A DNA stretch of 49,454 nt, from the IMG/VR virus record IMGVR_UViG_2519899780_000002; one strand, written 5' to 3'. Shown in pieces: positions 9,001 to 12,000 of this stretch. Positions within the stretch are counted from its first letter, which is position 1. Each line of letters begins with the position of its first letter. The position numbers were made by a program. This stretch comes from a virus (lineage: Duplodnaviria; Heunggongvirae; Uroviricota; Caudoviricetes).

Positions 9001-12000
9001 ATCACCTGGCTGTAAGTAACCACAGAGAACTTTACCTGACTGTGGGGGGCGAGTTGTGCAGGAACTTAACCGCTGGTTTCGTGACGGAAGAGGGCTTTAT
9101 GTCCATGTTATTCGTTGGGAGCCAGAAACACAGCGCGTTATCTATCTTCGCAAAGACTACCCGCATGAGTGCTTTAGTCCTTTGTGGAAATTCAGGCGTG
9201 ATTTTGTTGAGTGTGAAGGACCACCAGCATATTGATTCTGCAATTCCGGGACGTTACACTGTTCAGGCACCTTATAAAGCGGGTGCCGGGATTGGCGTCC
9301 TGAAATTCGCACATGCGCATAACCGCGCTTCAGCGGTTTTTTTGCGCACGTTTCCTCACATCCAAATTATGGTGGGGCGTGCAGGGGCATCGAAAGATGC
9401 GCCGGGGTCATGTGCGACCGGTTACGCCAACCCTGTACGTCTCACCACCTCTGTGATTGGCGTCCCATGTGGTGAGTTTTCAAAATTCGCACATGAGGAT
9501 GTCACTATGGCAACCACCCCTACCCAAACTCACCCTAAAATTGATGTTATCCATGGGAAGGCTGTTACCTCTTCTTTGGCCGTTGCCGAATATTTCTGCA
9601 AGCAGCACAAAAACGTTATTCAAAAAATCCAGACGCTTGAGTGCTCTGTTGAATTCACTGAGCTGAATTTTCAGCCCAGTGATTACACCGATTGCACAGG
9701 CCGCAAACTCCCTTGTTACCAAATCACCCGCGACGGTTTTGCGTTTCTTGCCATGGGCTTCACGGGGAAACGTGCTGCCCGGTTCAAAGAGGCATACATC
9801 AATGCCTTTAACCAGATGGAGAAACAGCTTTCAAATCCCTCTGTACTGAGCGACGTTGCACATAACGCCAGCGTTCTCTATTCCTACATTTCATCAATTC
9901 ATCAGGTCTGGCTGCAGCAGCTTTATCCCATGTTGGCAAAAGCCGAATCCCCGCTGGCTGTAAGTCTGTATGACCGCATCAACGACGCGGCGCTACTGGC
10001 CAGTCTCATAAATTTGTCGCTGAACCCTTCAGAGGTAAGGGGGCGCAAATGATCCGGAATATTTTCAAACGGTTTACCAATCATACTTTCCGTTGTCCTC
10101 GTCCGGGTCAGTGGTACACCACGCCTGCAGGGCATGTTCTACGTGTTAGCCTGGTTGACCGTGAATGTCAGAAGGTGATTTGTGAACCGCTGGGCCGTAA
10201 TTACCGCATCAGTATGCCGCTTATAGCCTTTTGCTCCGGAAAAAACATGAAGCATCTCGGAGGTGCAGCATGAGTATGGAGCTGATGGTTAAAGCGATGA
10301 AAATTCGAGTGGGTAATCCATTGCGAAAACTGGTTCTGATCAAGCTGGCTGATAATGCCAGCGATCAGGGTGAGTGCTGGCCCAGCTACCAGCATATTGC
10401 TGACCAGTGCGAGATTAGCAAACGTTCTGTGATGAATCATATTGCGGCCCTTTGTGAGTCCGGGCTGGTAAAAAAAGTCACCCGGAAAGGTGAAAAAGGT
10501 AACTCAAGTAATATCTATCTCCTTCATCTTGATGGTGCAGGAGATTCACTAGGGGGTAGTGCAAATAATTCACTATCTGGTGCAGCAAATTCACCAGGTA
10601 GTGCAGGAGTTGCACCAGGGGGTGGTGCAGGAGATTCACCCAGAACCAGTCACTCTTTTGAACCAGTCAAAGAACCAGTCAATGAACCAATAGCTGTTGG
10701 TGCATCTGCTGATGAGTCTGTGCGAGTTCGTTCAAACCGACCGGAATACTCTCCGGAGTTTGAGCAGGCATGGCTGGCATACCCCAAACGTGCTGGTGGC
10801 AATTCAAAATCTGCAGCCTTCAAAGCCTGGAAAGCCCGTTTGAATGAGGGGGTAAAACCCGAAACCATGCTGGAAGGTGTGAAACGCTACGCGGGCTGGG
10901 TATCTGCGATGGGTAACAGCGGCACACAATTTGTGAAACAGGCTGTCACGTTCTTTGGTCCGGATCGTCATTTCGAAGAATCCTGGGAAGTTCCTGCGGT
11001 ATCTGCAGCCAGACGCGAGGACCCGTACTTCAAAGCCAGTTACGACAACGTGGACTACAGCCAGATCCCGGCAGGATTCAGGGGGTGATCATGAGTCTTT
11101 TGAATGAAGTTCAGAAATTCATTGAAGCCCATCCGGGGTGTACTTCCGGAGACATTGCGGATGCTTTTGCAGGTTACTCACGGCAGCGCGTTCTGCAGTC
11201 AGCAAGCAAGTTACGTCAGAGTGGGCGTGTGGCTCACCGTTGTGAAGGAGATACACGCAGACATTTCCCGCGCCTGACTGAGAGAGCACAGGAGCCGGAA
11301 CCACAACCAGTTCGTGAAACCAGACCTGTGCGCAATTTCTGTGTCGGCACTAACGACCCGCAGGTGATTTTGTGCCTGACTCGCCAGGCGGAAGAACTGG
11401 AGTCCAGGGGCTTATTCCGTCGAGCTGCAACGGTGTGGATGGAGGCATTCCGTGAAAGCCACTCCCAGCCAGAACGAAACAATTTTCTGGCGCATCGTGA
11501 GCGGTGCTTACGGAAAAGCAGCAAGCGCGCTGCATCGGGTGAAGAGTGGTATCTGTCAGGGAATTACGTGGGGGCTTAATGAGTAATAAATATTGCCAGG
11601 CGCTGGTGGAGCTGCGGAACAAACCAGCCCATGAACTGAAGGAAGTGGGCGATCAGTGGCGCACGCCGGACAACATTTTCTGGGGAATTAACACCCTGTT
11701 TGGCCCGTTTGTTCTGGATCTGTTCACTGATGGTGATAACGCCAAATGTGCCGCTTATTACACTGCGGAAGACAACGCGCTGGCGCATGACTGGTCTGAA
11801 CGTCTTGCGGAGCTTAAAGGTGCTGCCTTTGGTAATCCCCCGTACAGCCGCGCCAGTCAGCATGAGGGGCAATACATCACCGGCATGCGTTACATCATGA
11901 AACATGCCAGTGCCATGCGTGATAAAGGCGGGCGCTATGTTTTCCTGATCAAAGCTGCCACCAGCGAAGTGTGGTGGCCGGAAGATGCAGATCATATTGC

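Follow-up and report, generated by a model that had tools for sequence, protein, structure and literature searches.

A probable lambda-type replication origin within the initiator gene of a lambdoid prophage

The initiator gene and the repeats inside it

The stretch of DNA analysed here (referred to as the window; 49,454 nucleotides (nt) in length) is a Caudoviricetes record of IMG/VR, IMGVR_UViG_2519899780_000002. The gene in question, at 10270–11088 on the plus strand, encodes a replication initiator of 272 amino acids (aa). Its ATG follows GGAGG and its stop codon overlaps the start region of the next gene. Inside the gene, an array of five repeated sites (iterons) is directly followed by a conserved block, and these two elements (10534–10689) probably make up the replication origin of a lambdoid prophage.

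The initiator is a member of the Pfam family HTH_36 (PF13730; residues 17–67, E=1.8e-11, 44.1 bits against a cut-off of 25) and of the PHROG family phrog_270, 'replication initiation protein', which it matches over the full length (residues 3–271, E=1.1e-88). The other Pfam matches at E≤0.01 are B-block_TFIIIC, HTH_20 and DnaD_N, the last of which is weak (24.3 bits, under the cut-off of 27). Phage_rep_O, the family of lambda O, is not among the matches at this threshold; thus, the protein is not assigned to that family, and our comparison with lambda concerns mechanism, not family membership. Some of the PHROG families matched by the N-terminal domain bear the name 'replication initiation O-like'. 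Pfam gave no match to Rep_3, the domain of iteron-plasmid initiators. Foldseek against the PDB identified no specific initiator homologue; its matches were all generic winged-helix folds, with E no lower than 0.009, one of the many being the N-terminal domain of DnaD (2v79, E ~0.03). A sequence search of solved structures produced a single chance-level match (E=0.088), and NCBIfam no meaningful family.

The AlphaFold2 model predicts a winged-helix N-terminal domain (aa 1–88; 10270–10533, plus strand) with helices at residues 3–11, 17–28, 40–47 and 51–64 and strands at 67–73 and 79–85, at a predicted local distance difference test score (pLDDT) of 76–90. The recognition helix corresponds to aa 51–64 and the wing to aa 67–85. 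In the linker, pLDDT drops below 50 (residues 91–156), as expected if the linker peptide is weakly constrained. The C-terminal domain (aa 141–272; 10690–11085, plus strand) matches phrog_26426, 'replication protein', and the C-terminal end of phrog_1701, 'DnaD-like helicase loader'. It has no Pfam family, a search of this part with Pfam finding no DnaD C-terminal domain either, and presumably recruits the replication machinery. Residues 1–48 (10270–10413; MSMELMVKAMK.KVGNPLRKLVLIKLADNA.D.GECWPSYQHIADQCE) are nearly invariant in the related loci L001–L206, which come from very different Gammaproteobacteria, and the recognition helix and wing just after them vary freely among relatives. Candidate partners for the invariant face of residues 1–48 are the conserved block, a host protein or the initiator itself.

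The gene shares 98–99.9% identity with its counterparts in phages 2H10, mEp460 and SfV (orf39), as well as in many Stx2a/Stx2c phages, where the annotation is replication protein. Identity is 90% to the gene of phage cdtI and 88.6% to sb42 of ST64B. At a coverage of at least 80%, the gene is found in 896 of 5,426 complete Escherichia coli genomes.

Iterons 1–4, recognised by pattern matching and dyad analysis, are located at 10534–10550 (GGTGCAGGAGATTCACT), 10558–10574 (AGTGCAAATAATTCACT), 10579–10595 (GGTGCAGCAAATTCACC) and 10600–10616 (AGTGCAGGAGTTGCACC). Iteron 5, at 10624–10640 (GGTGCAGGAGATTCACC), has no gap to the conserved block. All five are 17-base-pair (bp) near-palindromes of the form GGTGCA-N5-TTCACC, spaced by 24, 21, 21 and 24 bp from start to start, and each is imperfectly self-complementary at 8–10 of 16 positions. 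The pattern GTGCANNANNTTCAC occurs seven times in the window when at most one mismatch is allowed, compared with 1.19 matches expected, and 0 of 100 shuffles reach seven; five of the seven are the iterons themselves (10535, 10559, 10580, 10601 and 10625). Both arrays are recovered by Tandem Repeats Finder and by a second repeat finder. The former sees 2.5 copies at 67% identity, an under-reporting of the iteron array that follows from the variation of unit centres and spacers.

An earlier interpretation of this DNA, made from the sequence alone (the sequence-only reading), had described five direct repeats of ~21 bp at 10534–10640, followed by repeats of GAACCAGTCA, all of them in frame and encoding the Gly/Ser/Ala-rich linker of a helix-turn-helix replication protein. 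Both arrays are indeed present at these positions, and the coding assignment stands, the repeats corresponding to residues 89–140. The first array is real, but tandem 21-mers describe its units less well than spaced dyad-symmetric 17-bp sites do. A single reading frame is common to the five 17-mers; however, one copy of GAACCAGTCA is off frame, reading R-T-S-H versus E-P-V. The arrangement is that of a lambda-type array, with five 17-bp dyad sites in the linker-coding part of the initiator open reading frame (ORF) and three to seven such sites in relatives.

The conserved block (10641–10689) reads CAGAACCAGTCAC TCTTTT GAACCAGTCA AA GAACCAGTCA AT GAACCA. Exact copies of GAACCAGTCA in the whole window are confined to 10643, 10660 and 10672; at 10684, GAACCA represents a fourth, incomplete copy. 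The copy that encodes R-T-S-H is the first, 17 nt from the second; copies 2 and 3 encode E-P-V, and in Vibrio phage 236O40-1 the first unit is in yet another frame. Other roles considered for the block were rejected. A promoter (TTGAAC...) is not supported, there being no sigma-70-like site in 10000–11300. A programmed −1 frameshift at TCTTTTGA, which would end at a UGA just past the iterons, was dismissed since the T-run varies among loci (TCTTCT, TCTCTT and TCTCCT are common). Inspection also ruled out that the block holds an extra phased iteron: the ...GTCAC, at a distance of 14 nt to the last iteron, lacks a left arm to go with it.

Iterons and block in related loci

About 200 related loci were compared in all. 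One sample (A) was obtained by scanning viral contigs for the DNA pattern GAACCAGTCACTCTTTNGAACC, which gave at least 120 loci. For the other (B), one genome per species was scanned with an alignment restricted to the N-terminal 87 residues (A1), and 80 of the 260 relatives were taken; their hosts are Pseudomonas, Enterobacterales, Shewanella, Aeromonas, Marinomonas, Xenorhabdus, Providencia, Marinobacter, Microbulbifer, Cardiobacteriaceae and others. Single phages were added, namely, Vibrio phages D75, 381E49-1 and 236O40-1, Stenotrophomonas phage BUCT709, Pectobacterium phage ZF40 and cdtI. The relatives follow a common plan: the invariant N-terminal 48 residues, a variable helix and wing, dyad-symmetric 17-mers, the GAACCAGTCA block and C-terminal domains unrelated to each other.

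In 163 distinct loci, each with 3–7 iterons, the intervals between iterons are 21 bp (220 cases), 22 bp (66), 23 bp (71), 24 bp (206) or 25 bp (8), with a mean of 22.5 bp, i.e. about two helical turns. The last interval is 24 bp in 155 of these loci, and in 159 the 17-mer abutting the block is a member of the iteron family of its own locus. In 70 of the 163 loci some intervals are not divisible by 3, so that translation of one and the same iteron unit uses two or three frames: GTGCAGGAGATTCAC is translated as '(G)AGDS' in the window and as 'VQEIH' in three relatives (L009, L089 and L116). Where an interval measures 23 bp, the next one is typically 22 bp long, so that the frame is regained. Within a locus, the iteron arms are 92–100% identical and the central 5 bp 67–84%, and the iteron consensus is self-complementary at 10.2 of 16 positions, versus 4.1 in shuffles. 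At the level of sequence comparison, this pattern shows that selection acts on the DNA of the iterons and not on the peptide, and it is the signature of phased binding sites, as predicted for a dimeric protein, rather than of a peptide repeat.

Between phages the iterons fall into different types, including GTGCA..TTCAC, GTGAAA..TGCAC, GTGACA..GTCAC, (A/G)TGCC..GGCA, GTAGGC..GCAC and GGGCAG..CTGCCC. For 112 non-redundant loci, we compared the distances between iteron consensuses with those between the predicted recognition helices (aa 49–62) and found them to be correlated (Mantel r=0.67, p=2e-4). The correlation persists when residues 1–44 (partial r=0.64) or synonymous divergence (0.65) are controlled for, and the reverse partial, residues 1–44 against iterons with the helix controlled, is r=0.08. 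Helices of the '..SV(M/I)..' type pair with GTGCA or GTGAA arms and those of the '..(S/A/T)VR..' type with G/C-rich TGCC or TAGGC arms.

The block behaves differently from the iterons. In sample B, whose loci were selected by the N-terminal domain alone, 72 of 80 carry CAGAACCAGTCACTCTTTTGAACCAGTCA with at most 5 mismatches in 29 positions directly after the last iteron, and most of the others carry small indel variants of the block. Conversely, all 116 viral loci of sample A with enough upstream sequence encode the N-terminal domain, among the matches listed. The conserved stretch measures ~36 bp (C-CAGAACCAGTCAC-TCTTTT-GAACCAGTCA-nn-GAACC), and GAACC often recurs at a 12-nt period. The block of the window has one extra 12-nt unit, and its unit periods are 12–17 nt. 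No conserved DnaA box, IHF site, Fis site or GATC was found in or beside the block in the 86 non-redundant loci profiled. A search of full-text literature for GAACCAGTCA returned only unrelated primers among the matches listed.

We compared diversity by codon position in the block (nine codons) and in the N-terminal domain across 55 non-redundant loci. Pairwise diversity at positions 1, 2 and 3 is 0.126, 0.109 and 0.050 in the block, versus 0.156, 0.108 and 0.521 in the N-terminal domain, the third-position difference being significant (Mann-Whitney p ~1e-6). Changes from the consensus codon are 4 synonymous and 78 nonsynonymous in the block, versus 918 and 305, respectively, in the N-terminal domain. 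The peptide encoded by the block drifts (RTSHSFEPV, RISNSLEPV, RTSHSSEPV and others) while the DNA stays constant. On average over 86 loci, the block also has the lowest duplex stability of all 30-bp windows of the gene, with a GC content of 0.41 between flanks of 0.55–0.60, and the most stable window is the last iteron (0.60), right beside it. The GAACCAGTCA units are nearly invariant while iterons and recognition helix change and therefore are not specificity iterons; judged by these comparisons, the block is a separate family-wide element at the position of the AT-rich region of lambda.

Matches of the gene to otherwise unrelated phages are mosaic, covering gene positions 1–407, 367–416, 425–720 or 744–819 in BLAST searches. 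The segment 367–416 corresponds to the block alone, which is 90–97% identical in Vibrio and Stenotrophomonas phages. In the proteins P0064, P0068 and P0072, other types of N-terminal domain and iterons are joined to the C-terminal domain of the window exactly at the block. The C-terminal parts form nine clusters without mutual similarity, one of which is a single truncated product, i.e. at least eight unrelated types, and the iteron types are spread across these clusters. A Pfam search with eight C-terminal domain types gave only sub-threshold hints of DnaT and Phg_2220_C. Directly after the initiator gene, three clusters carry a gene for a Phage_lambda_P homologue (E=2e-29 to 2e-58). BUCT709 and 381E49-1 have a gene for a DnaB-type helicase at this position, and in ZF40 the gene is annotated as a helicase. 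In three other clusters, the product of the next gene has no Pfam match. In the cluster of the window, the next gene is not replication-related, encoding a PerC-like regulator. These mosaics centred on the block, together with the variety of partners, show that the N-terminal domain, iterons and block form one module and the presumed helicase-recruiting part another.

As a separate observation, many relatives (L021, L052 and related loci, L042 and L068) are followed by clear Phage_lambda_P homologues, with E down to 2e-58. Since the initiators of these loci are not of the lambda O family, P-type loaders are not tied to O-type (Phage_rep_O) initiators.

In a plasmid collection, the origin element is present in only ~15 records, of which eight are phage-sized (33–54 kb) and three exceed 4 Mb; there is no sign of a plasmid replicon family carrying it in that collection. 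The eight records (H101, H104–H106, H108, H109, H112 and H114) are circular 'plasmids' from E. coli, Salmonella, Klebsiella, Microbulbifer, Shewanella and Pasteurella, and their size suggests that they are excised or extrachromosomal phage genomes.

Near-identical alleles of the initiator gene differ almost only in iteron number, which ranges from 1 to ~10. Products of 242 aa have one iteron, those of 250 aa two, those of 272 aa five and those of 283–302 aa seven to ~10. The 272-aa form with five iterons is the dominant cluster (2,852 member sequences), a two-iteron form (P0030, 250 aa) is present on 64 contigs, and the inducible phage cdtI has eight iterons. An allele of 247 aa (P0039) has lost iteron 5 and the whole block, apparently by deletion between GGTGCA repeats, and another (P0036) lacks the wing of the DNA-binding domain. 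Both are probably from decaying prophages.

A candidate origin and competing explanations

We consider it probable that 10534–10689 is a lambda-type origin located in the linker-coding part of the prophage's own initiator gene and composed of the iterons and a conserved unwinding or loading element. This interpretation draws on the selection at the DNA level, the dyad symmetry with two-turn phasing, the covariation of iterons and recognition helix, and the lambda-P-like loaders or DnaB helicases encoded next to the initiators of relatives. The placement of the origin inside the initiator gene, put forward in the sequence-only reading, thus gains strong, though indirect, comparative support. 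Its proposal that the repeats are initiator binding sites holds as a prediction for the five 17-mers, for which the comparative evidence speaks, but not for the GAACCAGTCA units.

According to this model, dimers of the winged-helix N-terminal domain would occupy the five phased 17-mers through the recognition helix and build a nucleoprotein complex resembling the 'O-some' of lambda, the iterons making the origin specific to its own initiator. The block would serve for duplex opening and/or for loading of the helicase or priming machinery. It is also the joint at which the module of N-terminal domain plus iterons recombines with different C-terminal domains, which in turn would bring in the replicative helicase. 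Since no phage loader or helicase gene follows the initiator, host DnaB and DnaC would be required in this prophage.

Several points weigh against the model. The literature searched contains no experimental evidence of origin activity, binding or melting for any member of the family. The block is only moderately AT-rich (about 41–43% GC), and a plain unwinding element needs no near-invariant sequence, so the role of the block is uncertain. Loci for the codon-position comparison were chosen at no more than 5 of 29 block mismatches, which introduces a slight bias towards conservation. The covariation of iterons and recognition helix could in part reflect physical linkage, as the two are ~100 bp apart in a mosaic gene. 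Neither a P-type loader gene nor a helicase gene follows the initiator in the window, where the genes encode PerC-like, Dam, LexA_DNA_bind and RusA proteins, although such genes are present in relatives. Finally, some near-identical prophage genes have only one or two iterons, and in one allele the last iteron is missing together with the block. Absence of the repeats from near-identical genes that keep their function had been named in the sequence-only reading as a sign against an origin. What we find is that repeat number varies and that, among the alleles inspected, the block is missing in one rare case; the comparison of repeat number across related phages, also suggested there, gives 3–7 in the 163 loci and 1 to ~10 in the near-identical alleles.

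As to the factor that reads the block, one hypothesis is that the GAACCAGTCA array may be recognised sequence-specifically by residues 1–48 of the initiator, which are likewise invariant, perhaps in single-stranded form once the duplex has melted. Two codes would then be overprinted on the coding sequence: a fast one linking iterons and recognition helix and setting replicon specificity, and a frozen one linking block and N-terminal helices and governing opening and loading, the frozen code providing a universal joint for swapping helicase-recruitment domains. It is the strict co-occurrence of the block and the first 48 residues, in any host and with any helicase system, that suggests the initiator as the reader.

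Less likely, the block is read by a conserved gammaproteobacterial host protein, such as primase, helicase or a nucleoid protein, and not by the initiator or through melting alone. The invariance of the block across hosts and helicase-recruitment systems would fit such a reader. As a lead only, the lower strand of the unit (TGACTGGTTC) contains CTG, which is the start trinucleotide of E. coli DnaG. However, none of the usual host sites (DnaA box, IHF, Fis, GATC) is conserved in the block, and the co-occurrence with the 48 residues (116 of 116, among the matches listed, and 72 of 80) favours the initiator as the reader. Other initiator families in the same hosts might also be expected to use the block if it were a host signal.

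Slightly less likely again is that the block is mainly a 'linker' for homologous recombination, allowing the module of N-terminal domain plus iterons to be exchanged among C-terminal domains, and not a working part of the origin. That the block marks the edge of BLAST matches to unrelated phages (query 1–407, 367–416 and 425–720), that the chimeras P0064, P0068 and P0072 join exactly there and that at least eight unrelated C-terminal domain clusters have the block in common all agree with this possibility. Yet recombination requires identity, not one given sequence, and the block is near-invariant base by base across distant hosts. Its internal repeats, zero distance to the last iteron and conserved pyrimidine spacer rather indicate a factor that reads the sequence. 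The role of a recombination joint and that of an origin part are compatible.

It is improbable that replication starts elsewhere in the prophage and not at the repeats. Winged-helix proteins often autoregulate, and iterons of iteron plasmids also serve copy control. Furthermore, a plasmid with lambda oop and the iterons inhibits replication of rep-lambda phages (PMC3349717). By contrast, the sites discussed here lie in the middle of the gene, not at a promoter, and no promoter-like site is present in 10000–11300. The early region has no other repeat array, and the fixed geometry with an adjacent conserved element of low stability fits an origin. The sites may have a dual role that includes origin function. 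As for the notion that the repeats are a functionless by-product of a low-complexity Gly/Ser/Ala/Pro linker, with slippage-made peptide repeats, it can draw on the predicted disorder of the encoded stretch, the copy number of 1 to ~10 among near-identical genes, as for slippage-prone repeats, and the single frame of the five units in the window, but it is very hard to reconcile with units in different frames at a constant 21–25 bp spacing in 70 of 163 loci, with dyad-symmetric units whose arms are conserved, and with nearly fixed third positions in the block (78 nonsynonymous versus 4 synonymous changes), which is the opposite of selection on a peptide.

Known origins and genomic context

In lambda, gene O contains the origin, made up of four 18-bp iterons and a 38-bp AT-rich segment (PMC3349717). 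In the Stx phages 933W and P27, six iterons are present and add 13 residues to O (PMC7466680). P22 and L have their own repeats inside gene 18, four of ~20 bp in P22 and six imprecise ones of 11 bp in L (PMC8022706), and MD8 has repeats in an O-like gene (PMC8508860).

The candidate origin resembles that of lambda, 933W and P27 in its position mid-gene in the early rightward operon and in its 17–18 bp dyad sites, of which there are five in the window, four in lambda and six in 933W and P27. The sites are joined directly to a short duplex-opening element (a candidate one in the window), the N-terminal domain confers origin specificity and the C-terminal domain provides the link to the helicase loader (both presumed for the window), and extra iterons lengthen the protein (PMC3349717, PMC7466680). 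Unlike lambda O, the initiator belongs to HTH_36, with Phage_rep_O absent from its matches. The generic 38-bp AT-rich tract is replaced by the family-invariant GAACCAGTCA array of ~41% GC, and the prophage has no P-like gene, which three C-terminal domain clusters of relatives do have. Similar to the gene 18 origins of P22 and L, the repeats are phage-specific and inside the gene, and the partner can be a DnaB-type helicase (gp12 there; BUCT709, 381E49-1 and ZF40 here). However, the repeat sequences differ (L has TGTCCAACGGA) and no conserved GAACCAGTCA block is reported for those phages (PMC8022706). The lambda-like layout as such is already known; what is unusual is the near-invariant, sequence-specific block.

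Iteron plasmids (RK2, F, R6K and pPS10) likewise combine a winged-helix initiator and an iteron array with adjacent short direct repeats, 13-mers that melt in the plasmids and the GAACCAGTCA array in the window. In RK2 and F, Rep has been reported to bind one strand of the 13-mer unwinding repeats sequence-specifically, which by analogy could serve as a model for the GAACCAGTCA array. Plasmid iterons, however, are direct repeats bound by Rep monomers and located outside the rep gene, usually with DnaA boxes. The sites in the window are palindromic and inside the gene, without a conserved DnaA box, and the initiator has no Rep_3 domain, which sets the system apart from the Rep_3 type.

Among described systems, the Eru6 Stx phages (representative, Stx2a_WGPS2, AP012537) carry the same gene at 98.9% nucleotide identity, and in them a Rha/Ash protein beside cI is likewise followed by the HTH_36 protein (PMC8951638). 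In contrast to the present analysis, the description of Eru6 classifies proteins only, and neither 'iteron' nor 'origin' in the sense of a replication origin appears in it (PMC8951638). The position of the origin was not found in the literature consulted on phages carrying this gene, and an earlier description of the repeats is possible.

The initiator gene is shared by medically relevant phages, namely, the Stx2 'Eru6' phages, cdtI and the serotype-converting SfV. Iteron and recognition-helix types may allow replication-specificity groups to be predicted, and iteron copy number could relate to replication strength and, perhaps, to toxin-gene dosage. Knowing where the origin lies would also be useful in constructing or curing replicons derived from phages. 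The locus clearly exemplifies, in nature, DNA signals overriding codon-level evolution, third positions being more conserved than first and second ones. To find origins of this family in Gammaproteobacteria, the GAACCAGTCA block offers a simple query; should the two-code proposal hold, the block would be a one-line origin marker for thousands of gammaproteobacterial prophages, including Stx, SfV-like and ST64B-like ones.

Upstream of the initiator, the early region encodes a cI-type repressor (7310–8002, minus strand; Pfam Peptidase_S24 and HTH), a cro-like protein (8100–8360; HTH_3), cII (8353–8910; Phage_CP76), an Ash/Rha protein (8907–10052; Phage_pRha and Phage_ASH) and a 74-aa product (10049–10273; phrog_1153). 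Since the initiator gene follows cI, cro and cII, the candidate origin lies, like that of lambda, within the rightward early operon. No further repeat array was found at 6.5–16.5 kb of the window. In the Ash/Rha ORF (381 aa), the Ash domain occupies aa 117–211 and the Rha domain aa 221–306. The first ~115 residues are domain-free, and the true start may be downstream.

Downstream, the order is PerC-like regulator, Dam methylase, a protein with only a LexA DNA-binding domain, RusA, a KilA-N protein and a DUF968/HNH protein. The gene of the PerC-like regulator (11091–11579, plus strand; Pfam PerC, E=2.4e-8; phrog_1324, 'transcriptional activator'; yfdN in RefSeq) takes the place where relatives have the lambda-P-like loader or the DnaB-type helicase. 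The last ~25 codons of the initiator (11013–11088; query 744–819) and the start of this yfdN-like gene form a separate mosaic unit, 95–99% identical to that of phages with initiators not related in other respects, SfIV and Kati among them. At least three alternative versions exist of the initiator's extreme C-terminal tail.

On the minus strand of the wing-coding part, just upstream of the iterons, a terminator-like hairpin with a T-run (10478–10493) is antisense to the initiator gene. Such hairpins are at chance level (one found versus 1.4 expected), and this one is probably meaningless. Finally, the LexA-domain protein (12229–12555; 108 aa, E=2.9e-19), encoded between the Dam methylase and RusA in a nin-like region, is without the S24 peptidase domain and might be a non-cleavable mimic of LexA.

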